Counted from the stretch's first letter, positions 4,275 to 57,482 are shown. The stretch: DNA of 64,000 nt from an uncultured delta proteobacterium (GCA_963709285.1 CAVPVR010000002.1:65491-129490), one strand, 5' to 3'. Made by a program: numbers and translations. The notes: generated by a model not told the origin, from the sequence alone.

Positions 4275-4543
4275 CACCCGCCTGAGCATAAGTACGCCTG
4301 CCGAAATTAAAGTTCCCTGCCGAATTGCCGATTAAATAAACGAAGAATTATCAGGTCACCGACAAGGGCATACTACGCCGAAAGGGTAGGACGCAAAGTC
4401 ACCGGCCTACAGCCTGCGGGCCAGGGTAGCGGGGCTGCCGAAGTGAGCGGCATTCCCACCACCTGTCTGGTCCCTTCCCTTTCCCCGTCGCCCTGTGGTG
4501 CCCCGTCAATTCTTTTTCGGAAGGATGGGCCCTGAGCCGGGGA

Positions 4544-4725: not shown

Positions 4726-5238
4726 ATGCGACTTCGATGGTTTACTGGCCCCCGGAGCCACCGGGGAAAGGGCAACGTCATCATAGAATTGGCGTTGGTC
4801 ATGCCCCTGTTTCTTTTCATTATGGCCGGGATTATAGACCTGGGACTGCTTTTCTGGGAAAAGCATGTCATAACCAACGCCACTCGGGAAGGGGCCCGAG
4901 CTGCGGCACAAGCCGTGGACACCGGCACTGCCGTGGTGGCGCGAATGACCCAGAGCCAGGTAAAGCAAGTGGTCCAGGACTACGTGGATAACTTCGGCCT
5001 TAAGAACCTGGACGGCTCTCCCATGGTATTGAACAGTACTAACTTTGCCTACAGCTGGGCGAACACCAGCTCGGGATCTGTTCTCAATGTGTCCCTGAAT
5101 CAAGTCCCTTACAAAATGATGCTTTTGCCCAATTTCAGCACCTTTTTTGGTGGGACCAGAACAAGCGGGGATGAGGCGTTTTACCTGACCGCTCAAACGA
5201 GCATGGCTGCGGAATGGAGTACTCCGCCCGGTCCTTGA
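4726..5238 (+). CDS. TadE-like pilus assembly/pseudopilin protein
   Basis: N-terminus RGKGNVIIELALVMPLFLFIMAGIIDLG matches the TadE/TadG N-terminal hydrophobic signature. A G-rich RBS precedes the ATG. Confidence 0.75.
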   Translation: MRLRWFTGPRSHRGKGNVIIELALVMPLFLFIMAGIIDLGLLFWEKHVITNATREGARAAAQAVDTGTAVVARMTQSQVKQVVQDYVDNFGLKNLDGSPMVLNSTNFAYSWANTSSGSVLNVSLNQVPYKMMLLPNFSTFFGGTRTSGDEAFYLTAQTSMAAEWSTPPGP

Positions 5239-5418
5239 ATGCGAAAAATTTGTGGCAAGCCCCTCGTCCGGGTGCGGCTTCTGTTTCAGGGAAGCCTCCA
5301 GGGCGGGTGAGTAAAGGAAACTGAGGGAGCATCTCCAAGGTGAGCGGTCTGGCGTTCATGCGGAGAATGCCCTCAACATTACTGAAACAAGAATTTGAGG
5401 TTATCTGGAGGTAAGAGC

Positions 5419-6414
5419 ATGTTGCGGAAATTCTGTCGACAGGAGCGAGGGGCGGTGGCACCCATCAGTGCGGTTTATATCATCGTAGCTATGGGTATTC
5501 TAGCCCTGGCCATCGACCTAGGACACATTTTCCTGGTGAAAAGTGAACTCCAGCGGGTGGCAGACTCCGCCGCCCTGGCGGGTGCCTTGCGGTTTATGAC
5601 CCCCAACACCGGTGTGACCCCCGGGGTGATGCCGGCCTCCCCGGATTGTGCCAGGGCCATTACGGCGGCCCAAGCTGTGGGCATGCAAAACGATACCGAC
5701 GGCCAGCAAACCACCCTGGCTAACATTGCCGTCAACCTGGGCACCTGGAACGGGTCCACCTTCGTGAACACAGGCTGCGCCAATCCCAATCTGGTGAACG
5801 CGGTGCAGGCAGTGGCCAGCAAAACCGCCGACATCTATTTCGGGGGCATCATCACGGGCAGCAACACCATCAATCTCTCTGCCTTAGCCACGGTGCTGGT
5901 TGGCTCAGTGGGCGGCTTGCCCCCCGGATATCCAACCCTGCCCATAGCGGTGGACTCCGACAAGCTACCTTCCAATGGCCAGAAGTTAGTGTTGCGACTC
6001 AACCCCACCCCGGGGGACGACGGTTGCTGGCACACCTTTTTCTGGCAAAACCCGGCTGCTTCGCTCGTTCGGGATATCATCAACGGAGATGTGGAGACGC
6101 CCCTCATTAAGGAGGGAGATTATATTAAGGTAAAAGAGGGAGTGGCCGCCTCTGACCTTCAGGCGCTGGGGCAAAAACTGCAGCAGAACGGGGGGACCTG
6201 GGATGTGGTCTTGCCAGTAATCCCACCAGACTCTCATACCGGGTACGCCAGGGTGGATGGTTTTGCAGCGGTGCGTATGACCTTAGTGGAATCCACAGGC
6301 GGCGACAAGCGCGTCGAGTTCGAAACCCTGGATAACAAGCTGGCCCCCACCACTCTCCCGGGCGGCAGCACTAATTTTGGCCTGTCCACTGGCTCTCCCC
6401 GGCTGGTAAACTAA
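5419..6414 (+). CDS. TadG-like (Flp pilus-assembly TadE/G-like domain) protein
   Basis: N-terminus ERGAVAPISAVYIIVAMGILALAIDLGHIFLVKSELQRVADSAALAGA. A GGAGG RBS lies 7 nt before the ATG at 5419. Confidence 0.65.
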   Translation: MLRKFCRQERGAVAPISAVYIIVAMGILALAIDLGHIFLVKSELQRVADSAALAGALRFMTPNTGVTPGVMPASPDCARAITAAQAVGMQNDTDGQQTTLANIAVNLGTWNGSTFVNTGCANPNLVNAVQAVASKTADIYFGGIITGSNTINLSALATVLVGSVGGLPPGYPTLPIAVDSDKLPSNGQKLVLRLNPTPGDDGCWHTFFWQNPAASLVRDIINGDVETPLIKEGDYIKVKEGVAASDLQALGQKLQQNGGTWDVVLPVIPPDSHTGYARVDGFAAVRMTLVESTGGDKRVEFETLDNKLAPTTLPGGSTNFGLSTGSPRLVN

Positions 6415-30832: not shown

Positions 30833-33800
30833 ATGGCGTTGGTCCGGCCCCTGTCGCAGGTTGTCAGTTCCCGGGTGATGGTGGTGGGCGGGGGCATCGC
30901 GGGTCTTACCGCGGCCCTGGACCTGGCCGCAGTGGGTCTTCCCGTCACCCTGGTGGAGGAAGGTCCTTCCCTGGGGGGCCTGATGGCCCAGTTGGACAAG
31001 ACCTTTCCCACCAACGACTGCGCCATGTGCATCCTGGCGCCCCGGCTGCTGGAAGCGGCCCGGCATCCCCTGATTGAGATCCATACTCTGACCCGGGTAA
31101 TGGGGATGGAGGGACAGCCCGGGGATTTTAGGATACACTTGGCCCGCCGGCCGCGGTACGTGGACCCGGCCAAATGCACGGGTTGCGGGGAATGCGTCCG
31201 GGTTTGTCCCAAACGCATTCCCGACCCCTACAACCTGGGACTCAAGCCGGACCAAGGCCATCCACGTGCCCTTCCCTCAGGCGGTGCCGCAGGCGGCCTA
31301 TATCGACCCGGAGGCCTGCCGCCACCTGCAGGGGCGCGAGGAAACCTCCTGTGTTCAGGTGTGTTCGGCGGGAGCCATCAACTTTGCAGACCAGCCGGAA
31401 ATCTTTGTGAAGGAGGCCGGGGCCGTTATTCTGGCGCCTGGGGCCCGGCCCGCGCCGGTGCAGGACTTTCCCGGGGCCTGGCACCCGGATGTAGTCACCA
31501 GCCTGGAATTCGAGCGGCTGCTGAGTGCCACCGGTCCTCATGAAGGCAAGCTGCTGCGGCCCTCAGACCAGCAGGAGCCCCAGTCCATAGCCTATATCCA
31601 GTGTGTGGGGTCCAGGGACCAGGAGGCGGGCGCGGCTTATTGTTCCAGTCTTTGTTGCTTGTCCAGCCTGAAAGAGGCCCTGGTGGCCCAGGAGCTTACC
31701 CAGGACCGGGCCGCGACCACCATTTTTTACCTGGACCTGAGGGCCCAGGGCAAAGAGCAGGAGCGCTATCTGGAGACGGCTCAGGCCCGGGGGGTCGAGC
31801 TGGTGAGGTCCCGGGTCACTGCGGTCCACCCGCATCTGAAGGGTGGCCTGGCGGTGCGCTACACCGACCCCCGAGGCAGGCCCCAGGAGAGGATTTTTGA
31901 CTTGGCGGTCCTGGCGGTGGGACTCAGGCCGGCGGCGCACCTGCGGGATTGGGCCGGGCGGCTCGGCATAAGTCTCAACGAACACGGATTTATCAAGGAA
32001 GGGCAGCCTTTTTCTCCGGTTACGGGGCGGGAGGGCGTTTATCTTTGCGGCACGGCCCAGGAGCCCATGGACATTACCCTGTCCGTGGCCAACGCCAGCT
32101 CGGCGGCTCAAGCTGCAGCCCAACTCCTGGCCGTGAGCCCCCGGCCTGCCCTGGCCAGGGTGTCACGGGAAAAGCCGCTGAGCACCGATGGGCGCCCCCC
32201 GAAAATCGGGATTTTTCTCTGTCATTGCGGCACCAACATCGCGCGCACCGTCGATCCGGAGGCCTTGAGCAAGATGGTCCGGGAAATCCCCGGGGTGGCC
32301 CACGTGGAGGATTTCCTCTTCAGTTGTTCGGCGGACGCCACCCAAAAGATGGCGGCCATCATAGAGGAGCAGGGTTTGAACCGGGTGGTGGTGGCCGCGT
32401 GCAGCCCCCGCACCCACGAGGCCGTCTTTCGGGAGGTGCTGGCTGCAGCCGGGCTAAATCCGGGGTATCTCGCCTTCGCCAATATCCGGGAGCAGTGCGC
32501 CTGGGTGCACCAGGATGACCCGGACGCGGCCCTGGCCAAAGCTGCAGACCTGGTGGCCATGGCGGGGCGCGGGGCCCTGGAACTGGCCCCCATCACTCCC
32601 GCCACGTATCCGGTGATGCCCCGGGCCCTCGTTTTAGGAGGCGGGGTGGCCGGTATGAGCGCCGCCCTTTCTCTGGCCGACCAGGGCTTTCACACCTATC
32701 TGGTGGAACGCACTCCCCGACTGGGGGGGCTGGCCCGCAACCTGCGCTTCACCCTGGAAGGGTTAAATCCCCTGGAGTTAATCCAGGCCCTCGAAAATGC
32801 AATCTCCTGGCACCCCAACGTGGAAGTGCTCACCCAAACCGAACTGGTGTCCCTGGAGGGTACTGTGGGGCGCTTCCGGTCCCGGGTCCGCCAGTTGATA
32901 CAGGAAGAATGGGAGGAGAGGCGCCTGGAGCATGGGGTGGTGCTGGTGGCCACGGGTGGCCGGGAAATGCAGCCCGAGGGGAGCTATCTTTACGGTGAGG
33001 ACCCCCGAGTGCTCACCCAACTGGAACTGGAGGAGAAGATCAGCACCGGCGGCAAAGATCTGGACCGGGCACGGCGGGTAATCATGATTCAATGCGTGGG
33101 TTCCCGTTCTCCCGAGCGCCCTTACTGCAGCCGCTTGTGCTGCACCGAAGCCCTGAAAAACGCCCTTCTCCTCAAAAAGCGTTATCCCCTGGTGGAGATC
33201 GTTGTCCTCTATCGCGACATCCGGGCCTTTGGCTTCCGGGAATTGGCCTACCAGGAGGCCAAGGAGCGGGGCGTGGTCTTTATTCCCTACGACCCGGACC
33301 GGCCCCCGGAGGTGAGCGCGTCTCGGCGGCGGCCGTTGACAGTGCGGGTCTGGGACGAACTTTTAGAAGAGACCGTGACCTTGCCGGCGGATTTTCTAGT
33401 CCTGAGCGCCGGCATCGAACCGGCGGCGGGGAGCGGCAAGGCGGCCCACCTGCTCAAGGTGCCGCTGGCCACGGGCGGCTTTTTCCTCGAGGCCCATCAG
33501 AAACTCAAACCGGTGGAAACCATGGTGGATGGGGTCTTTATCTGTGGCCTGGCCCACTACCCCAAGAGCCTGGGAGAGGCGGTGGCCCAGGCTCAGGCGG
33601 CGGCCATCCGGGCCGCGGCCCTCCTCTTTCAGGAGGAAATCCAACAGAGTGAAATCTCTGCTATCATACTGAGCGAGAACTGCCAATTATGTCTTGCTTG
33701 TGTGAAAAGTTGTCCTTTTGCAGCCATTGTTGTGGGTGAGGGGGGAATACCCCAAATTATGGGAGAACTCTGCCGGGGCTGCGGGGTCTGCGCTGCGGAG

Positions 33801-33929
33801 TGCCCCGCCGGCGTCATTCGGATGAGCCGTTTTACCGACGCCGAGTTGACCGCCCAGATCATGGCTGCCCTGGAGCGTCCCCAAGGAGAGGAACATGGTG
33901 AGAGAGAGCTATTGCGGTCTGTGCGATGA
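30833..33929 (+). CDS. hdrA: Double-length HdrA-like flavoprotein (two FAD-binding modules plus ferredoxin domains), interrupted by a 1-nt frameshift near 31247
   Basis: GxGxxG appears twice (VVGGGIAGLTAAL, VLGGGVAGMSAAL), along with CVGSRD motifs and C-terminal CxxCxxCxxxCP clusters. Track ORFs 30833-31543 and 31266-33929 join as NLGLK(R)TKAIHVPFPQAVPQ if one C of CCGG is dropped. Compare the paralog sequence NLGLKSRKCIRIIFAQAVP. Confidence 0.75.
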
Positions 33930-34323
33930 CTGCCAGTTGGGCCATCCTGAATTCCTCAAGGCTGTGGCCCTGTTACAGGAATATCTGGACCGCTTTCGGG
34001 CCAACTGGTGGGTCCACTGTTTTCCGGAGAAGGAGGGCTTTAACTTCCCGGAATTCCGGCGAGGGTTGGACTGGTTTTTAGCGCACACGGAGTGCCCGGG
34101 CTGCAAAGGGGGTAAGGGATTGGAACTCTGCCCCATCCGGACTTGCGCCGTGGCCCGCGGGCTGGCGCACTGCTCCCTCTGTCCGGATTTGGTTCCTTGT
34201 GACAAGTTTGACCACCTGCTTGAGCAGTTCCCTGACGTGAAGATCAGCCTGCGCCGCCGTCAGTTGAAGATCAAGGCCATACATTTTCACCAGCAGTTAG
34301 CCGCCATAAAAAAGGAAGGCTGA
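33895..34323 (+). CDS. DUF3795-like Cys-rich protein
   Basis: N-terminal YCGLCDDCQLG and later CPGCKGG...CPIRTC...CSLCPDLVPC motifs. Confidence 0.5.
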   Translation: MVRESYCGLCDDCQLGHPEFLKAVALLQEYLDRFRANWWVHCFPEKEGFNFPEFRRGLDWFLAHTECPGCKGGKGLELCPIRTCAVARGLAHCSLCPDLVPCDKFDHLLEQFPDVKISLRRRQLKIKAIHFHQQLAAIKKEG

Positions 34324-34356
34324 GGGGCCTGACCCGGTTTTGCCGAGTTATTTCCC

Positions 34357-35211
34357 ATGAAAACGTTGGTCCACAAGCGTGAAACCAGAAGCGCCATTGA
34401 ATTGACCCTCCGGATGTACCAGGAGCTGGTAGAGCTGCGCCTGGACAAAACGGCCTGCCTCAAGTGCGAGGTCTGCTCCCTGGTCTGCCCTCGGGGGGCG
34501 GTGGCCGTCACGCCTGCTGACGAGGGCCTGGATATCACCATTGATCCCCGCGTCTGCGTGCTCTGCGAAATTTGCGCCCACTTTTGCCCTACAGGAGCGG
34601 TGAGCTTGAGGCTCAACGGCGTCCCCAAGACTATTTTATTCGACCATCTGGGTCTGGCGGCCTTTTTGGACAAGATCAGGATGGACAAGGAAAGGTGCAC
34701 CGAGCCCTGCCCCCAGGATGAAAAAGGGCAGGAGCACTGGTGCCGGCAGCAGCTGAAGCTGGTGGGAGGCCTGCTCACGGAGTGCCCCAAACACTGCCAC
34801 AAGTGCCTGACTGTGTGCCCCCGTCAGGCCATTGTCCTGGACCCGGAGGGCCTGCACACCATGCCCGAGCCCGACCTGTGCCTGCGCTGCACCCAATGTC
34901 TCTCGGTGTGTGAACAGGAAGCCCTGGCGGTCAACCCCCAGTTCACTGGCGACCTTGACATTGACGACAGCAAGTGCCCGCCGGACTGTATGCTGTGCAT
35001 CGAAGCCTGTCCCGTTAAGGCCATCGTGCGGGAAGGGGAGCGGGTCTACCGGAAGTTAGAAACTTGCAGCTACTGTGGGGTGTGCTACAACATTTGTGAT
35101 TACGAAGCCGTTAGCCTAACCCGGCGGCAGGTGGTGGCCCTCAAGGGGGAATTTTCCCAAGCCTGGGAAGAGGCGGTGAACCGGCTCCTCTCCCGGGAAA
35201 TGGTTCGATAA
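34357..35211 (+). CDS. Polyferredoxin (six 4Fe-4S-type motifs; MvhB/FwdF-like)
   Basis: CLKCEVCSLVCP, CVLCEICAHFCP, CHKCLTVCP, CLRCTQCLSVC, CMLCIEACP, CSYCGVCYNIC. Confidence 0.8.
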   Translation: MKTLVHKRETRSAIELTLRMYQELVELRLDKTACLKCEVCSLVCPRGAVAVTPADEGLDITIDPRVCVLCEICAHFCPTGAVSLRLNGVPKTILFDHLGLAAFLDKIRMDKERCTEPCPQDEKGQEHWCRQQLKLVGGLLTECPKHCHKCLTVCPRQAIVLDPEGLHTMPEPDLCLRCTQCLSVCEQEALAVNPQFTGDLDIDDSKCPPDCMLCIEACPVKAIVREGERVYRKLETCSYCGVCYNICDYEAVSLTRRQVVALKGEFSQAWEEAVNRLLSREMVR

Positions 35212-35235
35212 GTTGCGTTAAGCAAAAAGGCGTTT

Positions 35236-37599
35236 GTGGAACCTGAACTTCGCATCGGCTTATATATCTGTCACTGCGGCCTCAATATCGCCGGGGTCAT
35301 CAGTCCGGAGGCCCTGTCGGTTCAGGGGCAGGGGCTCCCTGAGGTGGCGGTCAGTCGCCATCATTTGTACACCTGCTCCGAAGCCGGCCAAGCCGAGATT
35401 CTGAAAGACATCAAGCACTTTAAGCTTGATCGGGTGGTTATTGCCGCCTGTTCACCCAAGCTTCATGAAGTCACCTTCCGCCGGCTGCTGTCGGAAGCGG
35501 GGCTGAATCCCTACCTGGTGGAAATGGTGAACATCCGGGAGCACTGCGCCTGGGTGCACGCCGGGGAGCCGGAGGCGGCCCAGGAAAAGGCGTTGGAGCT
35601 CATCCGCATGGGGCTAGCCAAGGCGTGTCTGGCGGTCCCCTTGCAAGACCGCCAGGTGCCCATGACCAGGCATGCCCTGGTTATTGGCGGAGGCCCAGCG
35701 GGACTGCGAGCCGCCCTCGATATTGCCCATGCCGGCTACCCCGTAACCCTGGTGGAACGGGAGCCCATCCTAGGGGGCATGGCCAACCGGCTGCATCGCA
35801 CCTTTCCCCGGGGGGAAAGCGCCCTGGCCCTGATCAATCCCCTCATGGCTGCGGTGGCCCTGCATCCCGGCATCCAGGTGCTCACCCAGAGCGAGGTCAC
35901 CGAGGTGAGCGGGCATTTGGGGGAGTTTGCCGTCACGGTGCGGGAGACCCTGCCCCTGGTGGGGGAGGCCTGCGACCGCTGTGGGCACTGTGCTGAGGTC
36001 TGTCCGGTGGTGGTTCCCGATACCGTGGCCGCAGGTCTTGGCACCCGGACTGCCATCTATCTGCCGGCCCCCCATGCTTTTCCCGGCCGCTATGTGGTGG
36101 ATCTGGAGCACTGCGACCGCTGCGGCGAGTGTATAGCTGCCTGTCCCCAGGAGGCCATCAGCCTGGAGGAAGGGGAACGAGAGCATCACCTCACCGTGGG
36201 GAGCATCGTGGTGGCCACGGGCTTCACTCTCTTTGATACGGCGGGGAGCCGCTATGAGAACTGGGCTGACCATCCGGGAGTTGTCACCACGGTGGCCCTG
36301 GAGCGCCTTCTGGCGGGGGCAGGACCCACCCAGGGAAAGGTAAGCCTTGCCGATATTCCAGAAGAGGTGCGGGATGTGGCTTTTCTGCTGTGCGTGGGCT
36401 CCCGGGAGGAGGAGGGCAACCGTTACTGCTCCCGGGTGTGCTGCCCCACGGCCTTGAAGCAGGCCCTGGAGCTGAAAAAACGCCTCCCGGAGGCCCGCAT
36501 TCGTATCTATTACCGGGACATCCGCACCAACAAAAAAGACTGGGAGGCCCTTTACACCGAGGCCCGGGAAGCGGGGGTGCTGTTTTTGCGGGGGCGGGTG
36601 GAGGAAGTAAAAGCCGCCCAAGATGGGGGCCTGCTCATTCGTGCCTTTAACGAGACCTTTCAGGTTCCCACCGAAGACCGGGTGGACCTGGCGGTCCTGG
36701 CCGTGGGCATGGTCCCCGGGAACGGCGCCGCTCTCCGGGAGGTGTTGAAGCTGCCGGTGGGACCGGACGGCTTTTTCATGGAGGCCCACCCCAAGCTCAA
36801 GCCCCTGGAGACGGTGCTGGACGGCATTTTTCTGGCCGGGGCCTGTCAGGGTCCCAAGGACCTGGCCGAATCCTTCACCCAAGGAAGCGGCGCGGCCGCC
36901 AAGGTTCTGGCCCTCTTTGCCCACGAGACCATCACCCTGGACGGCCTGGTGGCCCAGGTGGACCCGGAGGTCTGTGTGGGCTGCGGGGAATGCGCGGCAG
37001 CCTGTCCGTTTCAGGCCATGGAGATGGTGGGGGAGGAAGAAAAGCAGCAGGCCCAGGTAGTTACTGCAGCCTGCAAGGGCTGTGGGGTCTGCGCCGGCGC
37101 CTGTCCTACGGGGGCGGTCATCCCCGCGGGGTTTACGGACGAGATGATCCTGGCTCAGATCGACGAGGCCTTGGCGGAGGCTCCGGAACAGAAAATTTTG
37201 GCCTTTTGCTGCAACTGGTGCTCTTATGCCGGGGCGGACTTCGCCGGGGTGTCGCGGCTGGCCTATCCCCCCCAAGTGCGCATTATCCGAACCATGTGCT
37301 CTGGCAGGATTCACCCCAAGTTTATCCTCCATGCGTTTGAGCGGGGCGCCGGCCAGGTTTTGATCTCCGGTTGCCACCCTCCGGGGGAATGCCATTATAT
37401 TTCTGGAAATCTTAGGGCTCAGGAGCGGGTGGAAAAGCTCCGGCCCAAACTTGCCAAAAAAGGCATCGACCCTTCCCGCCTGCGGCTGGCGTGGGTTTCA
37501 GCCACGGAAGGGAGGGCATTTCAACGGGTCATTGAAGAAATGGCCGCGGCCCTGGAGCCTGAAGAGACGGTCAAACAAGCGAGCGGTCAGGGGAAATGA
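35236..37599 (+). CDS. hdrA: HdrA-like flavoprotein fused to a C-terminal MvhD-like domain
   Basis: LYICHCGLNIAG N-terminal cluster, VIGGGPAGLRAAL FAD motif, CVGSRE, ferredoxin motifs, and a C-terminal ILAFCCNWCSYAGAD...ISGCHPPGECHY (MvhD signature). GTG start. Confidence 0.85.
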   Translation: MEPELRIGLYICHCGLNIAGVISPEALSVQGQGLPEVAVSRHHLYTCSEAGQAEILKDIKHFKLDRVVIAACSPKLHEVTFRRLLSEAGLNPYLVEMVNIREHCAWVHAGEPEAAQEKALELIRMGLAKACLAVPLQDRQVPMTRHALVIGGGPAGLRAALDIAHAGYPVTLVEREPILGGMANRLHRTFPRGESALALINPLMAAVALHPGIQVLTQSEVTEVSGHLGEFAVTVRETLPLVGEACDRCGHCAEVCPVVVPDTVAAGLGTRTAIYLPAPHAFPGRYVVDLEHCDRCGECIAACPQEAISLEEGEREHHLTVGSIVVATGFTLFDTAGSRYENWADHPGVVTTVALERLLAGAGPTQGKVSLADIPEEVRDVAFLLCVGSREEEGNRYCSRVCCPTALKQALELKKRLPEARIRIYYRDIRTNKKDWEALYTEAREAGVLFLRGRVEEVKAAQDGGLLIRAFNETFQVPTEDRVDLAVLAVGMVPGNGAALREVLKLPVGPDGFFMEAHPKLKPLETVLDGIFLAGACQGPKDLAESFTQGSGAAAKVLALFAHETITLDGLVAQVDPEVCVGCGECAAACPFQAMEMVGEEEKQQAQVVTAACKGCGVCAGACPTGAVIPAGFTDEMILAQIDEALAEAPEQKILAFCCNWCSYAGADFAGVSRLAYPPQVRIIRTMCSGRIHPKFILHAFERGAGQVLISGCHPPGECHYISGNLRAQERVEKLRPKLAKKGIDPSRLRLAWVSATEGRAFQRVIEEMAAALEPEETVKQASGQGK

Positions 37600-39218
37600 T
37601 AACCAAGACCCAAGTTCTCTTGTGCGCCTGCCCGGACCTCAAGGTGGAGGTCCAGAACTTGGCCCAACGCCTCTCCCAGGCCGGGCTGAGGGTCGAAGTA
37701 TCCCCGCCTCTCTGCACCCCCGCGGGTTTGGAGGAATGGGGGCCACGCCTGACGGCCGAACCCCGGGAGTGGCTGGTGGCCGCGTGCGGACCGGCACAGC
37801 ATCACGGCCTTTTTCAACGTCTGGCCGGGGATGAACCTCTGGCCATGGTGGATCTCCTAGCCGCAGACGATCTGGAAAGCGCTGTGGCAGCCGTCCTCCT
37901 GGCCCAAAAGGAGGAAATTCGCCTGGTTTCCGCGGGCGCACCCCACAGCCGGGAGGTGCTGGTGGTGGGGGGCGGGGTGGGGGGCTGTCAGGCCGCCCTG
38001 GACCTGGCCAATGCCGGTTTCAAGGTACATCTGGTGGAATCCTCCCTCTCCATCGGTGGCACCATGGCCCAGTTGGACAAGACCTTTCCCACGCTGGACT
38101 GCTCCATCTGCATCCTGGGACCCAAGCTGGTGGAAGCCGCGGCCCACCCCTTGATTGAGCTCCTCACCTTTGCGGAAATCACCGGCATTTCCGGCCAGGC
38201 CGGGCGATTTACGGTGGATGTGACCCTGAAGCCCCGCTATGTGGACATGAGCCGGTGTGTGGGCTGCGGCAGTTGCGTCCAGGTCTGCCCGGTCATTGTT
38301 CCCAGTCGCTGGAACCTGGGGCTCAAGTCCCGCAAGTGCATCCGCATCATTTTTGCGCAGGCGGTGCCCCTTATGGCCACTATCGAAAAAGAATACTGCA
38401 TCGACTGCCAGATGTGCCTTGAGGCCTGTGAACACGGGGCCATTCACCCTTTGTCCCGCCCGGAGGAACGGCGCCTCGAGGTGGGGGCGGTGGTTCTGGC
38501 TACCGGGGCCCGGCCCTTTGACCCGGCCATTCAGAGTGAATACAGTTATGGCCGTCTCCCCGGGGTCCTCACCAACCTGGAGTTCGAGCGCCTGGTGTGC
38601 GCCACCGGTCCTACTCAAGGACATCTCCTGACCCCCGCCGGGCAACCGGTGAAGCGTCTGGCCTTCATCCAGTGTGTGGGCTCCCGGGACCGGCGCTTCC
38701 TGCCCTACTGCTCGGGCTACTGCTGCACTGCGGCCATCAAGCAGGCCATGCTGACCCTGGAGCATGAACCCGACGCCGAGGTCACCATCTTTTTCAACGA
38801 CATCCGCACGTCGGGGAAGGGCTTCGAGGAACTCTATTTGCGGGCCCAAGCCGCGGGAGTGCGCTTTACTAAAGGTCTGCCGGGGCGTATCGAGGCGGGG
38901 GAGGCTGGCAGCCTCATAATCATTTATGAAGATCAGCAAGGCGGCCAGCGGGGCCGTCTGCCCGTGGACCTGGCGGTCCTGTCCGTAGGCCTGACCGCAC
39001 CCCGGGAGGGACTCCCCTTCACAGAGATCGGGCCGGTGCGGGACAACCTGGGATTTTATGACAGCCGGCACCCGATCCTTCATCCCCTGGAGTCCACGGT
39101 GCCGGGAGTCTTTCTGGCCGGCACCGCCCAGGGGCCCCGGGATATTTCTGAAACGGTGTGCACCGGCAGCGGGGTTGCGGCCCGGATCATCAACCTGCTC
39201 AATTCTCTGCCCCAGTAG
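37596..39218 (+). CDS. hdrA: HdrA-like flavoprotein (third paralog, with a distinct N-terminal extension)
   Basis: VVGGGVGGCQAAL, DKTFPTLDCSICIL, CVGCGSCVQVCP and IQCVGSRD motifs. Its start overlaps the upstream stop (ATGA). Confidence 0.8.
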   Translation: MITKTQVLLCACPDLKVEVQNLAQRLSQAGLRVEVSPPLCTPAGLEEWGPRLTAEPREWLVAACGPAQHHGLFQRLAGDEPLAMVDLLAADDLESAVAAVLLAQKEEIRLVSAGAPHSREVLVVGGGVGGCQAALDLANAGFKVHLVESSLSIGGTMAQLDKTFPTLDCSICILGPKLVEAAAHPLIELLTFAEITGISGQAGRFTVDVTLKPRYVDMSRCVGCGSCVQVCPVIVPSRWNLGLKSRKCIRIIFAQAVPLMATIEKEYCIDCQMCLEACEHGAIHPLSRPEERRLEVGAVVLATGARPFDPAIQSEYSYGRLPGVLTNLEFERLVCATGPTQGHLLTPAGQPVKRLAFIQCVGSRDRRFLPYCSGYCCTAAIKQAMLTLEHEPDAEVTIFFNDIRTSGKGFEELYLRAQAAGVRFTKGLPGRIEAGEAGSLIIIYEDQQGGQRGRLPVDLAVLSVGLTAPREGLPFTEIGPVRDNLGFYDSRHPILHPLESTVPGVFLAGTAQGPRDISETVCTGSGVAARIINLLNSLPQ

Positions 39219-45218: not shown

Positions 45219-46721
45219 GTGACCTTGCCTGAAAACACCTATTTATCCCGGGATGAAGCAACTCCGGACGAGCGCCTGGACCGGCAGGTGCGCATTCCGG
45301 GGTGGAACCAGGAGGCGTTGGCCCAGGCCCGGGTGGGGGTGGTGGGAGACGACCCCTGGCTCACTGGCCTGGTGGTGACTTCGGCTGCGGCCCTGGGAAT
45401 CAACCGGCTGACGGTGGTGGCCCCGGACCTGGACCCCCGCTTGCTCTCGGCGACCCGGGGGCTTAATCCGGAGTTCAACCTTGCCTGGTTCCCAGGCTTT
45501 TTCAGCCATTCCCTCCTGGAGGACCTGCTCCGGGAATGCACCGTCCTGATTGACCTGGGCCACCACGGCCTGGCCACCAAGCTCCTCCTCAATCTGGCCC
45601 AAAGGAAAGGTCTCCCCCTGGTGCGGGCGTCTGACTTTGAGGAGGATGGGGTGGCGGGCCTCAGGCTCTTCACCTATCAGCCAGGCCGGGAATGGCGGGA
45701 ACTCCTGGAAGTGCTTCCTCAAGCCCAACTTCCTTCCCGGTGTCAGGGCGACCCGGTGCTGGCTCTGGTCACGGTGGGGCTGGTTCTCGAGGAAACCAAA
45801 AAGCTCCTCCTGGGGGAGGCGGTAACACCGGAGGTGATCTCATACTCTCGGGCCAGCTTAAAGACATTTAATTTGAGGGAGAGGGCTAGGGGCCGTGAGC
45901 CCCTACCCCCTCCCTCAAACTCCCTCCCCCAACCCCTTAAGGGGGAGAGAAATGCTGTAAAGTCGGGGCAAGCTGCCCCGACTTTACAAGCACATTGCGG
46001 GATGGGAGGGGGGCTTGATGGGAAGAAAGGGACCGGTAGCATGGGCTTCCAGCCCGTGGCACCCTGGCCTTACCCTCATGAGCTCATTTTTCTGGATTCC
46101 CCCATCGCGGTGGTGGGCGCCGGGGCCCTGGGGAACTTTGTGGCGTTGGGGTTGGCCGCTCTGGGCTTCACCCGCCTCACCTTTATCGATCCGGACCCGG
46201 TGGAGGTCACCAATCTGAACCGTCAGGTTCTCTTCTGGGACGCCGTGGGACAGCCCAAGGCCGAGGCGTTAGCAGAAAAAATCAAGGAGTGGTTCGGGGT
46301 GGCGGTCAGGGCTGACACGACATACATCACCCGGGAGACTGACTTGCGCGAGTTTGCCGTGGTGTTCGACTGCACGGACAATTTTGCCAGCCGCATTATC
46401 CTGAGCGAAAAGTGCCGGGAATATGGCCAAATCCTCATCAGCGGCGGCACCGGGGTGGAGGCCGGACAGGTAGTGGTCTTCGACCCCGCGCAAGGCGGCC
46501 CCACCCCCGCAGAGCTTCTGGGGCTTTATGACATCGTGGGACAGCGTGACATCGACGTCAAAGAGCGGGAACGGGCCTCCTGCGTCTATGCCCCTGAAGC
46601 CGCCATAATCATGACCAACCAGATCGTCGGGGGCCTTATGGTGGACACCCTGAGAAGACTGCTTACGGGAGAGCCGGCACCCAACCTCTTCTACGACGCC
46701 CGGAGTGAAAGGATGATTTAG
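45219..46721 (+). CDS. E1-like (ThiF/MoeB/UBA family) activating enzyme with a degenerate N-terminal and an intact C-terminal adenylation domain
   Basis: The C-terminal half, IAVVGAGALGNFVALGLAALGFTRLTFIDPDPVEVTNLNRQVLF...FDCTDNFASR, is a classic ThiF fold. The N-terminal half has a Rossmann-like layout but a degenerate loop (VGVVGDDPWLTG). GTG start. Confidence 0.8.
   Translation: MTLPENTYLSRDEATPDERLDRQVRIPGWNQEALAQARVGVVGDDPWLTGLVVTSAAALGINRLTVVAPDLDPRLLSATRGLNPEFNLAWFPGFFSHSLLEDLLRECTVLIDLGHHGLATKLLLNLAQRKGLPLVRASDFEEDGVAGLRLFTYQPGREWRELLEVLPQAQLPSRCQGDPVLALVTVGLVLEETKKLLLGEAVTPEVISYSRASLKTFNLRERARGREPLPPPSNSLPQPLKGERNAVKSGQAAPTLQAHCGMGGGLDGKKGTGSMGFQPVAPWPYPHELIFLDSPIAVVGAGALGNFVALGLAALGFTRLTFIDPDPVEVTNLNRQVLFWDAVGQPKAEALAEKIKEWFGVAVRADTTYITRETDLREFAVVFDCTDNFASRIILSEKCREYGQILISGGTGVEAGQVVVFDPAQGGPTPAELLGLYDIVGQRDIDVKERERASCVYAPEAAIIMTNQIVGGLMVDTLRRLLTGEPAPNLFYDARSERMI
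45873..46062. repeat. G/C-tract hairpin repeat modules inserted in frame inside the E1 gene
   Basis: TTGAGGGAGAGGGCTAGGGGCCGTGAGCCCCTACCCCCTCCCTCAAACTCCCTCCCCCAACCCCTTAA matches the intergenic element at 57548-57616. It also contains the hairpin AAAGTCGGGGCAagcTGCCCCGACTTT and a GGCTTCCAGCCCGTGGCAC motif. Confidence 0.7.
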
Positions 46722-53035: not shown

Positions 53036-54502
53036 TTGAAAAGTTCTGAATTTCCTCAAGATATTCAGGAACATCTCATCCCTACCCCCACCGGGGACAT
53101 GGTGTACCGCTGCCTGGAGTGCGCGGCTGAGTTTGACATCACTGAACTCCTGTACACCTGCCCGGAGTGCAAGGGGCTCTTTTTATTGATAGACCGCAAC
53201 GAGGGGCGTCTTCAGGAAAGGTCCGGGGCCTTCTGGCGGCGGCTGTTCGACTACCGGCGGATGCTGAATGTCCCGGCCCTTCAGGGGATTTTCCTCTACT
53301 ATGAGCTCATCGCACCGGTGATTCCCCTGGACCAGATCATCTACCTGGGGGAAGGCCATACCCCCCAGGTGGCGGCCAATGACGACCTGGCCGGCGAGGT
53401 GGGGGCGGCCTTTTATTTTAAAAACGACGGCCAGAACCCCAGCGCCTCCTTCAAGGACCGGGGCATGGCCGCGGCCCTGAGCTACCTGAATTTTCTGGTT
53501 AACTCCCGCAATCTCGGGAAAATTCTGTCCATCTGCGCCAGCACCGGGGACACCTCCGCGGCCGCGGCCCTGTATGGGGCCTACCTGGGGGACAAAGTCG
53601 CGTCGGCGGTGATTCTCCCCCACGGCAAGGTGACGCCCCAGCAGTTGGCCCAGCCATTGGGGGCCGGGGCCCGGGTGTTGGAAATTCCCGGGGTTTTCGA
53701 CGACTGTATGCAGGTGGTGGAGGCCCTGGCGGACAACTACCAGGTGGCCCTGCTCAACTCCAAGAACTCCTGGCGCATCCGGGGGCAGGAGTCTTACGCC
53801 TTCGAAATCGCCCAGTGGTTCGACTATGATCTCACCGGCAAGGCCGTGGTGGTGCCCATCGGCAACGCCGGCAACATCACCGCGGTCATGCAGGGATTTT
53901 TAAGACTCCACGATCTCGGGATCGTCGAAAGCCTTCCCCGGGTGGTGGGGGTGCAGTCCCGCCACGCCAACCCGGTATTTCGCTATTACCTTGAACCTGA
54001 CCGGGCCCAGCGCGTCTTTATGCCGGTGACGGTAACGCCCAGCGTGGCCCAGGCCGCCATGATCGGCAACCCGGTCAGCATGCCCCGGGTCATCCGGCTG
54101 GTGGAGGAGTACCGCCGTCGGGCCGGGGAGGGGAGCGTGGCTGTGGTGGAGGTGACCGAACAGGAGATCATGGACAGCATGATCCTGGCCAACCGTCACG
54201 GCCATATCGCCTGCACCCAGGGGGGCGAGTCCCTGGCGGGCCTCCGAGCAGGGGTGGCGGCAGGCCTTTTGGACCAGGGTGAACTGGCGGTCCTGGACGC
54301 CACCGCCCACCACCTCAAGTTTGTGGGGTTTCAGGAGATGTATTTCGAAAACACCTTTCCCCCGGAATTCGAGGTGACCCCGAAGGCGGCCTATCAGAAC
54401 CGGCCCCAGCTCCTCACCCCGAAGAGTGGGGACCCGGCCCAGAAAGTTTCCGAATTAGCCGACCAGATCGCCCAGCTGCTAAGGTTAACTCCTAAAAACT
54501 AA
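53036..54502 (+). CDS. thrC: Threonine synthase (long form with N-terminal Zn-ribbon)
   Basis: CLECAAEF...CPECKG ribbon and the PLP-lysine motif NPSASFKDRG. TTG start with an AGGGAG RBS. Confidence 0.9.
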   Translation: MKSSEFPQDIQEHLIPTPTGDMVYRCLECAAEFDITELLYTCPECKGLFLLIDRNEGRLQERSGAFWRRLFDYRRMLNVPALQGIFLYYELIAPVIPLDQIIYLGEGHTPQVAANDDLAGEVGAAFYFKNDGQNPSASFKDRGMAAALSYLNFLVNSRNLGKILSICASTGDTSAAAALYGAYLGDKVASAVILPHGKVTPQQLAQPLGAGARVLEIPGVFDDCMQVVEALADNYQVALLNSKNSWRIRGQESYAFEIAQWFDYDLTGKAVVVPIGNAGNITAVMQGFLRLHDLGIVESLPRVVGVQSRHANPVFRYYLEPDRAQRVFMPVTVTPSVAQAAMIGNPVSMPRVIRLVEEYRRRAGEGSVAVVEVTEQEIMDSMILANRHGHIACTQGGESLAGLRAGVAAGLLDQGELAVLDATAHHLKFVGFQEMYFENTFPPEFEVTPKAAYQNRPQLLTPKSGDPAQKVSELADQIAQLLRLTPKN

Positions 54503-54571
54503 CCTGCCTCTCATCTTGTGGAGAGAAACTTATCAGGAGATTTCCCATTTTTTATTGGAAAGGAAAATGAC

Positions 54572-54973
54572 ATGCGGAAGGTGTTGTTATTAATATTGGT
54601 ATTCGCCGTCAGTCTGGCGCTGACCGTCCCGTGTCAGGCCGGTAAGGAAGAACTCCGGGTTGACAAAGACACTCTGAAAAGCTGGTTGGCTGAACACCAG
54701 GTTCTCATTGTTGACGTGCGCGTGGGGAGCAGTTGGGAAAAGAGCGGTACCAAGATCAAAGGTGCGGTCCGTCAGGATCCCCACAAGGTGAAAGACTGGG
54801 CCGCCAGCCTACCGAAAGATAAAAAATTAGTCTTGTACTGATCCTGAGCCAATGAGGCTACCAGCGCCCGGGTGGCGCTGCAATTGCGTGACATGGGTTT
54901 TCCCCAGGCCATGGCTCTAAAAGGCGGCTGGAAGGAATGGGAAACGGCGGGTTACCCCACGGAGCCTAAATAG
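54572..54973 (+). CDS. Secreted rhodanese-like protein with two in-frame TGA codons at the CxC active-site positions (candidate selenoprotein, or a pseudogene)
   Basis: Signal peptide MRKVLLLILVFAVSLALTVPCQA. The rhodanese pattern VLIVDVR...KDKKLVLY-[TGA]-S-[TGA]-ANEATSARVALQLRDMGFPQAMALKGGWKEWETAGYP continues in frame to the TAG at 54971-54973. The TGAs are at 54839-54841 and 54845-54847. Confidence 0.6.
54862..54880 (+). promoter_or_regulatory. SECIS-like hairpin downstream of the two TGA codons
   Basis: CAGCGCC-CGGGT-GGCGCTG is a 7-bp perfect stem with a G-rich 5-nt loop. It starts 20 nt after the first TGA and 14 nt after the second. Confidence 0.4.
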
Positions 54974-54990
54974 AGACGGGTAAATGTCAT

Positions 54991-55200
54991 TCGAGTGGAG
55001 GGCCGGGGGACCACGGGTCCTTCGGCCCTCCACTCGAGCTTCCCTCCCAACCCCCCTTGACCGGGAGAACAGGCATCCTGCCTGTTCTTGCACAGGCTGG
55101 AAACTTGTGCTCCCGCTTAATATAGGGGGTTGGGGGAGTGGGCCTGGGCGAGGGGGCAGGGGTCCGCGACCTCTGGCCCCCTCTCCCAAAATCTATTAGC
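54991..55200. repeat. Cluster of repeat modules, including a 15-bp-stem hairpin and an inverted copy of the 46795-46865 module
   Basis: TCGAGTGGAGGGCCG (54991-55005) pairs with CGGCCCTCCACTCGA (55023-55037). Also present are GAGAACAGGCATCCTGCCTGTTCT, CACAGGCTGGAAAC, and TAGGGGGTTGGGGGAG...CTGGCCCCCTC. Confidence 0.75.
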
Positions 55201-55215
55201 ATCAGCCTGCAAAAA

Positions 55216-55650
55216 GTGAAAATCCCCATCAACGATAACTACTGTTTCGTGTGCGGCCGGGACAACCCCCGGGGCCTGAAAATCACGGTAAAACTCTTTC
55301 CGGAGGAGATGGCGGCCGAAACTGAATTGGCCTTGCCCCGGGAATACCAGGGCTGGGCCGACGTCATCCATGGGGGGATTTTGTCCACCCTTCTGGATGA
55401 GATGATGGCCCAGGCGGTGTGGCATTTCGCCGGCCCGGGGTTGACCCTGAACATGGAGGTGCGCTTCCATCATCCCCTCAAGCCCGACGAAGCCATCCGG
55501 GTCCGGGGGATAATCATCGCGGCCAACGGCAGCCGCCGCACTGCGGCAGCCGAAATTACCCGCAGCCGCGACAACCGCAAGATCGCCAGCGCCAAGAGCC
55601 GGTTTTTGTTGCTGGAGGAGAGGGGTGGGGTAGGGGGCTCGGAATCCTGA
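55216..55650 (+). CDS. PaaI-family hotdog-fold thioesterase
   Basis: CFVCGRDNPRGL..., HGGILSTLLDEMMA. A GTG start at 55216 is proposed because the upstream part of the track ORF lies in the repeat cluster. Confidence 0.7.
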   Translation: MKIPINDNYCFVCGRDNPRGLKITVKLFPEEMAAETELALPREYQGWADVIHGGILSTLLDEMMAQAVWHFAGPGLTLNMEVRFHHPLKPDEAIRVRGIIIAANGSRRTAAAEITRSRDNRKIASAKSRFLLLEERGGVGGSES

Positions 55651-55810: not shown

Positions 55811-56281
55811 ATGCTCCAGGTCGTTATTCTCATGGTGGGGAAAACCCGGGAAGCTTTCGTTCAGGAGGGCTTGGACTTCTATACCAAACGCCTGCGGCCC
55901 TTTTTCCGGCTGACGGTGAAAAGTGTGCGGGAGGAGAAGGAAGGAAAGAAACTTGCAGCAGAAATAATAAAAATCAAGGAGGGAGAACGCCTGCGGGCCC
56001 AGATACCCCCCCGAGCCTATGCCGTGGCCCTGGACCCTCGGGGGAAAGAATGCACCACCGAAGAATTTGCCTTCTGGTTGGCCCAACGGGAGGAAGACGG
56101 TCGGCCCCTAACCTTTCTTATCGGGGGGCACCTTGGTCTGGACGCAGCCACCCTGGCCGCGGCCCACGATCAGTTAGCCCTCTCTCGCCTGACCCTCACC
56201 CACGAACTGTCCCGCTTGGTGCTCCTGGAACAACTCTACCGGGCCAAAACCATCCTCATCGGCCACCCGTATCACGTGTAA
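55811..56281 (+). CDS. rlmH: 23S rRNA (pseudouridine1915-N3)-methyltransferase
   Basis: 156 aa, LIGGHLGLD...LSLSRLTLTHEL...EQLYRA...HPYH signature. Confidence 0.9.
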   Translation: MLQVVILMVGKTREAFVQEGLDFYTKRLRPFFRLTVKSVREEKEGKKLAAEIIKIKEGERLRAQIPPRAYAVALDPRGKECTTEEFAFWLAQREEDGRPLTFLIGGHLGLDAATLAAAHDQLALSRLTLTHELSRLVLLEQLYRAKTILIGHPYHV

Positions 56282-56422: not shown

Positions 56423-57037
56423 CTAACAAGTAATATTAAGGTAGGGGAAGTTTGTCATCGAACGAAGTTTTTTCGGGTCTTTGGCAAGATTGTTCAGACC
56501 CTGACAGAGGTTGTCCTCTACCTCATCAAGATCCCTTAACGCCTTGTTGGCAAAATTCTTCTCCCGTAACTCCTCCCAAATATGTTCGGAAGGATTCAAC
56601 TCTGGGCTGCGCGGAGGCAACTTGATCAGCCTAATATTTTCGGGTACCTCCAATCTCCGGGAGATATGCCACCCGGCCTGATCTACCAGCATGAGGATAA
56701 AATAATCCGGAAAATCCTCCGCCACCTGCCTCAAGAAGATATTCATCATCTCCGTATTGGCCCAAGGCAAGATGAGGGAGGTCATTCTCCCCAATGCCGG
56801 GCACACCGCTGTGAAGACATAGAGATAAGTTCTAATAACCTGCCGGGGCGCTTGCGGCCTCGTCCCCAGAGGCGACCAGGCGCGCCTGACATCACTGATG
56901 CGGCCAAAGCGTCCCTCGTCTTGAGCAAAGAGTAACACCGGACGATGATCTTCCGGGGCTCTGTCGGCCAGTTTTTCAGCCATTATTTCGGGAAGTTTTT
57001 TTAAAAGCCTCCTGCTCCTCTTTATCGGCATCGACAT
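56423..57037 (-). CDS. IS630 transposase, DDE catalytic part (ORF B, +1 frame relative to ORF A)
   Basis: LLFAQDEGRFG..., MLVDQAGWH..., LPPRSPELNPSEHIWEELRE (DDE_3 signature). Confidence 0.85.
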   Translation of the reverse strand: MSMPIKRSRRLLKKLPEIMAEKLADRAPEDHRPVLLFAQDEGRFGRISDVRRAWSPLGTRPQAPRQVIRTYLYVFTAVCPALGRMTSLILPWANTEMMNIFLRQVAEDFPDYFILMLVDQAGWHISRRLEVPENIRLIKLPPRSPELNPSEHIWEELREKNFANKALRDLDEVEDNLCQGLNNLAKDPKKLRSMTNFPYLNITC

Positions 57038-57482
57038 GGAACGGCCGGGGCACCACTTTCCGCCAACCCTGCCGTTTAAGTAACCGATAGACGGTGGTCT
57101 TGTGGACTGTTCGACCGATCCGTCTTTCCAAAGCCTCCTTGATTTCTGCTACGGTAACAATCTGGCCGGTAAGCGCCATCTGCCTGAATGATTCTATAAA
57201 GGCAGTCTCTTCGTCCCAGCTTAAATAGGAGCGGCGCCGTCCACCCTTCCCGGGTCCCTCCACCGCTTCCGGCCCCCAGCGATTATATCTGGAAATCAGA
57301 TTATGAACCGATTGCTCCGCAAGTCCGGTATGCAAAGCAATTTCCCCGGCAGAGCGAGGATCAACCAGGGCATTCCAAATAACCAGCCATTTTTGCACTC
57401 GCCAAAACCCCACCGTTGCTTTAATTTTTGCCTGAATTTCTTCCTTGGAAAGGTGGGGGATACTCTTGGTAACTTTTCCCAT
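56976..57482 (-). CDS. IS630 transposase, N-terminal HTH part (ORF A)
   Basis: 168 aa with helix-turn-helix/winged-helix regions. It ends inside an A7 tract (T7 on the plus strand, 56996-57002). Confidence 0.8.
   Translation of the reverse strand: MGKVTKSIPHLSKEEIQAKIKATVGFWRVQKWLVIWNALVDPRSAGEIALHTGLAEQSVHNLISRYNRWGPEAVEGPGKGGRRRSYLSWDEETAFIESFRQMALTGQIVTVAEIKEALERRIGRTVHKTTVYRLLKRQGWRKVVPRPFHVDADKEEQEAFKKTSRNNG

Follow-up and report, generated by a model that had tools for sequence, protein, structure and literature searches.

We analysed a plus-strand gene for a rhodanese-like protein, with TGA at two active-site codons, in a 64,000-nt stretch of DNA from an uncultured delta proteobacterium (GCA_963709285.1, CAVPVR010000002.1:65491-129490; hereafter the window, with positions counted from its first letter). 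The frame opens with ATG 54572, runs for 133 codons and is closed by TAG 54971-54973. Its central part reads AAA AAA TTA GTC TTG TAC TGA TCC TGA GCC AAT GAG; the two stops (TGA#1 and TGA#2) are separated by the single codon TCC (54842-54844), and no later stop precedes the TAG. Translation with read-through gives MRKV...LVLY-*-S-*-ANEATSARVALQLRDMGFPQAMALKGGWKEWETAGYPTEPK (asterisks, TGA); with selenocysteine (Sec, U) at both stops the predicted motif is U90-S91-U92 (Y-U-S-U). The original prediction for this locus, made from the sequence alone, had placed TGA at both codons of a rhodanese active-site CxC in a frame open to the TAG, and its coordinates all hold.

In existing gene lists the gene is cut short. 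The mechanical list of open reading frames (ORFs) of the window shows only the N-terminal piece, 89 codons from ATG 54572, entered as 107 amino acids from GTG 54518, and the public gene calls give an 89-residue ORF (P0001). When Cys was put at both stops, the Pfam Rhodanese profile (PF00581) matched residues 33-125 over profile positions 3-101 of 102 (E = 6e-14). As this match spans both TGA codons, the rhodanese domain is complete only with read-through of both.

The same protein, again with Cys at both TGA codons, scored 156.4 bits against a cut-off of 115 with NCBIfam NF041203 (rhodanese_LYCAU), over profile positions 3-126 of 126. NF041203, ‘rhodanese-related (seleno)protein’, is an equivalog model with the normal motif L-Y-C-x-U; it stands for a known, computationally defined selenoprotein family whose usual motif is Cys-x-Sec. 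The related cluster P0016 carries the same name in its source. The last position of the motif agrees with the window gene, in which TGA#2 lines up with the TGA of about 40 relatives. The third position departs from it, the window having TGA#1 (predicted Sec) at the place of the Cys. The rhodanese fold is indicated by the PF00581 match as well as by the structural model of the homologue P0027 (see below). Other rhodanese models (ChrE, MoeB/MoeZ, TsoB, GlpE and PspE) scored far under their cut-offs. The mark of a selenoprotein gene, an in-frame UGA opposite Cys in homologues, is present at both claimed Sec positions: position 1 (TGA#1) is Cys in the CxU members, and position 2 (TGA#2) is Cys in P0027, P0037, P0044, P0117, L055 and L057 (here and below, P and L denote related protein clusters and DNA loci). 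Thus the proposal of a rhodanese-type selenoprotein family was borne out by a curated model, and the orthologue alignment, in which Cys or TGA had been expected at the same two codons, gave this result at both.

At the N-terminus, MRK-VLLLILVFAVSLALTV-PCQA and then GK, the n, h and c regions of Sec-type signal peptides can be recognised. Hydrophobic N-terminal segments of an equivalent kind occur throughout the family, and in the AlphaFold2 (AF2) model of P0027 the residues of this segment are unstructured and of low confidence. A lipoprotein is unlikely, since relatives do not conserve the Cys of the window's signal segment (...IPALAGAD in P0031). Judged from these features, the protein would be exported to the periplasm. 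A U-x-U site in a protein with a signal peptide had been regarded as unusual in the original prediction; the signal peptide proved to be family-wide and the U-x-U form had been reported already in 2007. The features of the locus are collected in Table 1.

Table 1. Features of the rhodanese locus, in window coordinates
Feature	Coordinates	Strand	Basis
Shine-Dalgarno-like AAGGA, 7 nt 5′ of the ATG	54560..54564	+	Read from the sequence; putative function
Predicted selenoprotein gene, complete (two Sec codons; U-S-U pre-protein, NF041203 family)	54572..54973	+	Reading frame, Pfam, NF041203 score, orthologues of the same architecture
Predicted Sec-type signal peptide, residues 1-23	54572..54640	+	Sequence features and family-wide equivalents
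Rhodanese domain, residues 33-125, including both TGA codons	54668..54946	+	Pfam; AF2 model of the Cys-Ser-Cys homologue P0027
TGA#1, residue 90, auxiliary position, predicted Sec	54839..54841	+	TGA kept in L001-L010; Cys in CxU and natural C-x-C homologues
TGA#2, residue 92, probable canonical catalytic position, first of the loop U-A-N-E-A-T	54845..54847	+	Aligns with the catalytic Cys of 6mxv; TGA in almost all family members
SECIS-like hairpin, 7-bp stem (54862-54868/54874-54880), core of 5 bp (54864-54868/54874-54878), loop CGGGU (54869-54873)	54862..54880	+	Folding energy, bacterial SECIS criteria, covariation

Conservation of the two TGA codons

Searches at the protein level produced 409 matches in 5.8 billion proteins, and motifs were counted in 134 sequences of these. 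Most of the 134 (84) end ...Y-C-x, i.e. they halt at position 2; 18 end ...L-Y and halt at position 1, as the window gene does. Four are natural full-length Cys-x-Cys proteins: P0027 (YCSCANE), P0037, P0044 and P0117. Several others have ‘W’ at position 2.

Scans of genomes and metagenome contigs yielded about 50 loci, and 47 distinct relatives were read at the DNA level. The relatives include metagenome-assembled genomes (MAGs) labelled Syntrophobacterales, Desulfobaccales and Thermodesulfobacteriota, groups that are rich in selenoproteins. We observed TAC TGA TCC TGA in three further lineages, P0031 (64% identical), P0076 (a Syntrophobacterales MAG, 69%) and P0004 (85%); in these loci (L001-L004, L005-L008 with L010, and L009) the frame is open to a common C-terminus, ...GYPT[ES]PK. 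A more distant locus, L048 (50% identical), reads TAC TGA ACC TGA, that is U-T-U. Nearly all other relatives have Y-C-[A/S/D/T]-TGA. Two shorter forms have a single Sec codon and no partner Cys: L011 (10001-10399) has Y-TGA-QKEGT with a loop two residues shorter, and L062-L064 (gene 3001-3288 in L062) have L-S-TGA-NNEGT with a spacing of 21 nt between Sec codon and hairpin loop. L055 and L057 are Cys-Ser-Cys.

We considered the possibility that P0016 (...IVLSRNNEG...) hides two dropped U letters and rejected it; the DNA of P0122, from the same cluster, has the shorter single-Sec form L-S-TGA-N-N-E. The Sec codon is gone from two loci that gained no Cys at position 2. L047 (686-1012) has TCT (Ser) there. 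P0002 (L059 136-543, on a 750-nt contig) has TTA (Leu), with the hairpin of the selenocysteine insertion sequence (SECIS) type intact, and this TTA may be a sequence error or a very recent loss of Sec.

One alternative is that two nonsense mutations, or errors of sequencing or assembly, have left an 89-residue fragment or no product at all. Such a pseudogene would fit the public call of an 89-residue ORF and a window that shows no Sec machinery. We compared the four U-S-U lineages in six pairs by the Nei-Gojobori ratio of nonsynonymous to synonymous differences per site (pN/pS). In the 41 codons after TGA#2 the ratio was 0.18-0.42, indistinguishable from the 0.21-0.36 found in the 60 codons before TGA#1, and synonymous differences reached 0.5-0.6 per site, yet both TGA codons and the intervening TCC were unchanged. 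Purifying selection downstream of the stops, together with the TGA codons held fixed despite synonymous divergence, excludes a pseudogene or a sequencing error. In addition, TGA-TCC-TGA is identical in independent assemblies and in lineages of 64-85% identity, with the downstream frame intact to the same end residue, and TGA-ACC-TGA occurs in the unrelated lineage L048. Disrupted frames in orthologues, named in the original prediction as a finding that would tell against it, were not what we saw. On this comparative evidence we consider the pseudogene or error explanation effectively refuted, with only a very slight probability left to it.

The 12 nt TAC TGA TCC TGA (54836-54847 in the window) are identical in all four U-S-U lineages; in this small sample, the invariance could stem from a constraint that tandem recoding puts on codon context.

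A second alternative is that TGA has been reassigned to a sense codon (Trp or Gly) throughout the genome, as in codes 4 and 25, and the Trp at position 2 of some database homologues could be read in this way. The DNA of P0092 (L060 and L061) reads CTT TAC TGT ACC TGA CAC, so that the stored protein is not its translation and its ‘W’ is an artefact of gene callers that translate TGA as Trp. Moreover, TGA terminates 13 of the 30 Pfam-confirmed genes of the window, e.g. pdxJ (profile covered over 1-234 of 234), the window has a G+C content of 58.5%, and the relatives are Thermodesulfobacteriota, not altered-code lineages. Reassignment is refuted by these observations, and its probability is negligible.

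The spurious Trp of P0092 lies on short contigs (L060 358-783, L061 210-635), where the TGA is followed by the conserved SECIS hairpin. P0022, P0023, P0026, P0030, P0096 and P0105 probably share this artefact, and other selenoprotein families in the same databases are probably hit by it as well.

Catalytic position and evolution of the motif

The original prediction had taken the first TGA as the position of the catalytic Cys. In a phmmer alignment, ...YUSUANEATSARVA... is matched gap-free to ...YFYCGGGFRSALVA... of the Francisella rhodanese 6mxv; the catalytic Cys of 6mxv falls on TGA#2, and the next helix matches residue for residue. Orthologues shorter by two residues keep only the Sec or Cys of position 2: Y-U-QKEGT (L011), L-S-U-NNEGT (L062-L064) and Y-C-QKEGT (P0006 and similar proteins). 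Position 2 is also the family-wide Sec position. Taken together, these three lines of evidence point to residue 92 as the canonical nucleophile, heading the loop U-A-N-E-A-T. Residue 90 is auxiliary, an invariant Cys in the long C-x-U forms and missing from the short forms; since the short loci do without a partner residue, this position is dispensable. The canonical catalytic position is thus probably the second TGA, and the earlier assignment was off by two residues.

The AF2 model of P0027, the natural C-S-C homologue, has a rhodanese fold with a mean predicted local distance difference test score of 88. The motif lies directly behind the central β-strand (residues 90-94), ahead of a helix that starts at residue 101. 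The top Foldseek matches of the model are the rhodanese domains 3tp9, 2hhg and 6mxv.

In the window the rhodanese gene stands between a gene for a ThrC-like pyridoxal phosphate-dependent enzyme (53036-54502) and genes for a 4HBT thioesterase (55138-55650) and RlmH (55811-56281). The order ThrC-like/rhodanese/4HBT/RlmH is common to the U-S-U loci, the C-A-U loci L015, L025 and L026 and the short S-U loci L062-L064. The loci that share it are orthologous, but their active-site motifs differ, being S-U, C-x-U or U-x-U.

An IS630-type transposase on the minus strand (56423-57482) lies just downstream of rlmH, at the point where synteny with the relatives is lost. It is divided into two ORFs that overlap (HTH_33/HTH_29, 56976-57482; DDE_3, 56423-57037), which points to either a decayed copy or a programmed frameshift. 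The Syntrophobacterales MAG (L005-L008, 3527-3808; also L010) has, directly 3′ of its U-S-U gene, a single-Sec paralogue with the motif Y-C-D-TGA-YNEAGSARVA. A U-x-U and a C-x-U paralogue thus lie in tandem in these loci, compared with a single copy in the window.

The four U-S-U lineages group together in a neighbour-joining tree (62% bootstrap), as a single clade within the C-x-U members. L048, with its U-T-U motif, joins this clade in only 0.2% of the replicates, and the sequences nearest to it, at ~60% identity, all have the C-x-U motif; ThrC-like, 4HBT and RlmH neighbours of L048 were not found within 3.7 kb of sequence. As L048 stands apart from the U-S-U clade, the second Sec codon arose at least twice. 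Each origin needed just a TGY-to-TGA change beside an existing SECIS.

The hairpin and the proposed decoding of two UGA codons

Within the coding sequence, 3′ of TGA#2, lies the hairpin CAGCGCC-CGGGU-GGCGCUG (7 bp, 5-nt loop, -11.8 kcal/mol), with a UGA-to-loop spacing of 27 nt from TGA#1 and 21 nt from TGA#2. For bacterial SECIS (bSECIS) elements the published ranges (PMC13188914) are a loop of 3-9 nt, a stem of 4-16 bp, a UGA-to-loop distance of 16-37 nt and a minimum free energy (MFE) of at most -7.5 kcal/mol; one of the first two loop nucleotides is a G, as a rule with G or U after it. The window hairpin agrees with all of these for both UGA codons. The 7-bp GC hairpin that the original prediction had seen at a SECIS-compatible distance is therefore present; its identification as a SECIS stood as far as the published criteria go, while a match to a SECIS family in Rfam was not obtained.

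Conservation of the hairpin was assessed in an ungapped alignment of 66 nt, beginning at the Tyr codon, of 40 distinct TGA-containing family members (alignment A1). RNAalifold predicted a single helix, columns 29-33/39-43, which is the 5-bp core of Table 1, and no second conserved helix in the 66 nt. Four of the five core pairs are standard in 40/40 sequences and the remaining one in 39/40. The pair 30-42 (54865/54877 in the window) is C-G in 24 sequences, U-A in 15 and U-G in one. Columns 30 and 42 are third positions of Ser (AGC/AGU) and Ala (GCG/GCA) codons; this compensation is synonymous and hence reflects a constraint on the RNA, not on the protein. The covariation score was 0.252, compared with 0.150 ± 0.015 in shuffled alignments, and none of 500 shuffles attained it. 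When the 3′ partner was slid along the alignment, pairing dropped from 88% to 19-56%. The loop consensus is N-G-K-N-U, with an invariant G (column 35, window 54870). The hairpin has the same position in U-x-U and C-x-U members (40/40 aligned relatives); given this placement and the lack of a second helix, one element would have to serve both UGA codons.

The hairpin bears on the idea that the locus makes two products, an exported N-terminal peptide of 89 amino acids and an internally started C-terminal peptide. A GTG at 54872 does open a 33-residue ORF in the same frame. However, this GTG is part of the conserved hairpin and is the codon of a conserved Val (in T-S-A-R-V-A), both halves are needed for the rhodanese fold, and full-length single-chain homologues exist; we see practically no chance that two products are made.

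Read-through without selenium, or with one Sec only, is a further alternative. UGA could be read by a near-cognate tRNA (Cys or Trp) or inefficiently, or UGA#1 could be poorly served, so that the product would be mixed or mostly truncated. SECIS function in Escherichia coli depends on spacing, the placement of the hairpin is fixed to UGA#2 and not optimised for UGA#1, and the orthologous L-S-U loci manage without position 1, so that residue 90 is not essential. Still, a mostly terminating TGA#1 would be strongly deleterious, yet it persists at synonymous divergence of up to 0.6; a TGA at position 1 arose a second time; and the 27-nt spacing is inside the published 16-37 nt. We consider this alternative unlikely, though less so than the other three.

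Several results weigh against selenocysteine decoding at both codons. The simple SECIS test is passed by 7.8% of all TGA triplets in the window, and the 70 nt at 54836-54905 have an MFE no better than shuffles (z = -0.62), an alternative pairing being preferred. As the signal of the single sequence is unremarkable, the case for a SECIS rests on conservation and covariation. With gathering and E-value thresholds, Rfam gave no SECIS family match, only weak matches of miRNA models at 54988-55040. In E. coli fdhF the SECIS stem-loop acts at a defined distance of 11 nt from the UGA; measured against this, it is only by the looser consensus across species that one hairpin could plausibly serve two UGA codons at a 6-nt offset. 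Genes for selA, selB and selD were not found among the ORFs examined in the 64-kb window, which also has no tRNA gene of any kind and hence no tRNA-Sec. No other TGA-split selenoprotein gene was found in the window by tests of split ORF pairs with Pfam. All three HdrA paralogues of the window, including a fusion with MvhD, are uninterrupted Cys forms; in Deltaproteobacteria both HdrA and MvhD/FrhD are well-known selenoprotein families. Finally, in the literature searched we found no protein-level or selenium evidence for any member of the NF041203 family.

The split-gene candidates that we rejected by Pfam were pdxJ with its downstream ORF, FtsH with a beta-helix protein, and the minus-strand pair 3744-4289/2616-3674; these are ordinary adjacent genes or non-genes.

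Having weighed these points, we think it highly probable, on comparative sequence evidence, that the gene is functional, that its product is an exported single-domain rhodanese of the NF041203 family, and that both UGA codons (residues 90 and 92) are decoded as Sec.

For such decoding we propose the following mechanism. The hairpin would recruit SelB·GTP·Sec-tRNA(Sec) from within the coding sequence, with UGA#2, the family-wide Sec codon, 21 nt ahead of its loop. In the U-S-U clade a one-base TGY-to-TGA change would have converted the adjacent conserved Cys codon, 27 nt ahead of the same loop. A distance of 27 nt is within the 16-37 nt range, so that no second SECIS would be needed, and an origin of U-x-U by a single change would have been possible because the pre-existing SECIS was already within range. 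Two SelB-delivered Sec-tRNAs would then reach the ribosome within three codons from one hairpin. In the protein, residue 92 would act as the nucleophile and residue 90 as its partner, which would form a selenenylsulfide in the C-x-U forms; the U-x-U pair would form a diselenide, possibly a very low-potential, fast-exchanging centre for redox reactions or chalcogen transfer in the periplasm. That one SECIS directs two Sec insertions two codons apart, in a periplasmic U-x-U diselenide rhodanese with at least two independent origins from C-x-U ancestors (the U-S-U clade and L048), is a fuller claim, towards which we lean with moderate confidence.

If it is right, the SelB/SECIS system tolerates a shift of 6 nt and reloads within about two elongation cycles, and the family offers a natural experiment on how far SECIS spacing can vary and on the replacement of a resolving Cys by Sec. 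In the naturally occurring U-x-U forms two UGA codons at a distance of 6 nt apparently share one bacterial SECIS, and the resolving partner in the C-x-U redox pair, the auxiliary Cys, appears to have been upgraded to Sec; these forms bear on the strictness of SECIS spacing outside E. coli and on the advantage of a diselenide over a selenenylsulfide. There is also a practical side. Databases list the window gene and some 18 related clusters as fragments of 89-91 residues, and other relatives with a spurious Trp at the Sec codon; for all of these, annotation as full-length selenoproteins is warranted. The clusters truncated at the first position should be annotated as two-Sec proteins.

Other elements of the window may be mentioned. 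A perfect 22-bp GC-rich hairpin with a 3-nt loop (54991-55037), unique in the window, begins 18 nt after the rhodanese stop; the 87-nt region around it has an MFE of -51.4 kcal/mol (z = -5.7 versus shuffles). It has no U-tract and was therefore missed by the terminator scan, and it explains the spurious weak matches of the Rfam miRNA models; its candidate roles are those of a terminator, a stabiliser of the mRNA or an element resembling repetitive extragenic palindromes (REP-like). The HdrA-like flavoproteins (887, 787 and 540 amino acids) are encoded on the plus strand at 31266-39218 together with a polyferredoxin (34357-35211), the 787-residue protein being the HdrA-MvhD (FlpD) fusion. A 500-residue adenylyltransferase of the ThiF/MoeB family (45219-46721, plus strand), whose first ~290 residues have no Pfam or NCBIfam match, is encoded 8 kb upstream of the rhodanese. 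A cyclic di-GMP-I riboswitch aptamer (RF01051, 68 bits versus a gathering score of 35) at 4357-4442 on the plus strand precedes the plus-strand ORFs 4726-5238 and 5395-6414, the latter a Tad/Flp-pilus-like gene.

Comparison with known systems

Rhodanese selenoproteins of this kind have been in the literature since 2005-2007 and are represented in NCBIfam, and in this respect our finding is confirmatory. A UxU rhodanese-related sulfurtransferase was reported from deltaproteobacterial symbionts of Olavius algarvensis by Zhang and Gladyshev in 2007 (PMC1976440, Fig. 3A), who gave the UxU form one sentence and did not discuss the decoding of two UGA codons or the sharing of a SECIS. The window gene resembles that form, compared by description only, in having a second Sec, one residue apart, in a rhodanese selenoprotein. 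The habitats differ, marine worm symbionts in the 2007 report and MAGs labelled Syntrophobacterales and Desulfobaccales among the relatives found here. A full-text search for UxU with selenocysteine returned no further paper that, judged by title or abstract, dealt with a bacterial selenoprotein. Reviews of 2022 and 2026 give only the CxU form of the rhodanese with one Sec. Other bacterial proteins with two Sec residues are TsoB (UxxxxU), MbdU (CU) and peroxiredoxin (Prx)-like proteins (UxxU). The evidence supports the conclusion that the window gene is genuine and wrongly annotated, and that it belongs to a known selenoprotein family, in the rarer U-x-U form reported once in 2007. What is added here is the covarying hairpin at 21 and 27 nt from the two UGA codons, the evidence that the second Sec is the catalytic one, the origin of U-x-U at least twice and the range of motifs across orthologous loci.

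The window gene is like other members of NF041203 in its length, its signal-peptide-like N-terminus, the Sec codon at position 2 and the SECIS hairpin 21 nt downstream, and the nearest members share the ThrC-like/rhodanese/4HBT/RlmH order as well; it departs from the norm of the family in that the Cys of the defining L-Y-C is replaced by a second TGA, giving two predicted Sec residues instead of one. With TsoB (NF045694, rhodanese/DsbD fusion-like) it has in common a rhodanese domain with two Sec positions near each other, and the match is weak (25.9 bits). This score is far under the cut-off of 805, TsoB is a fusion of 572 positions with another Sec spacing, and the window gene is not a member.

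PspE and GlpE are, like the window protein, single rhodanese domains with a six-residue loop after the nucleophile, and PspE is exported too. The scores with GlpE (21.9 bits) and PspE (19.4 bits) did not reach the cut-offs of 102, and the window gene is not an orthologue of either; GlpE and PspE use one Cys, without a partner residue two positions upstream and without selenium. As to the RNA element, the window hairpin shares with the fdhF SECIS of E. coli a position inside the ORF just 3′ of the UGA and a small apical loop with G followed by G or U. Unlike the fdhF element, which serves one UGA per hairpin at 11 nt, its stem begins 14 nt after UGA#2 (16 nt to the core) and 20 nt after UGA#1 (22 nt to the core), and it has no bulged U.

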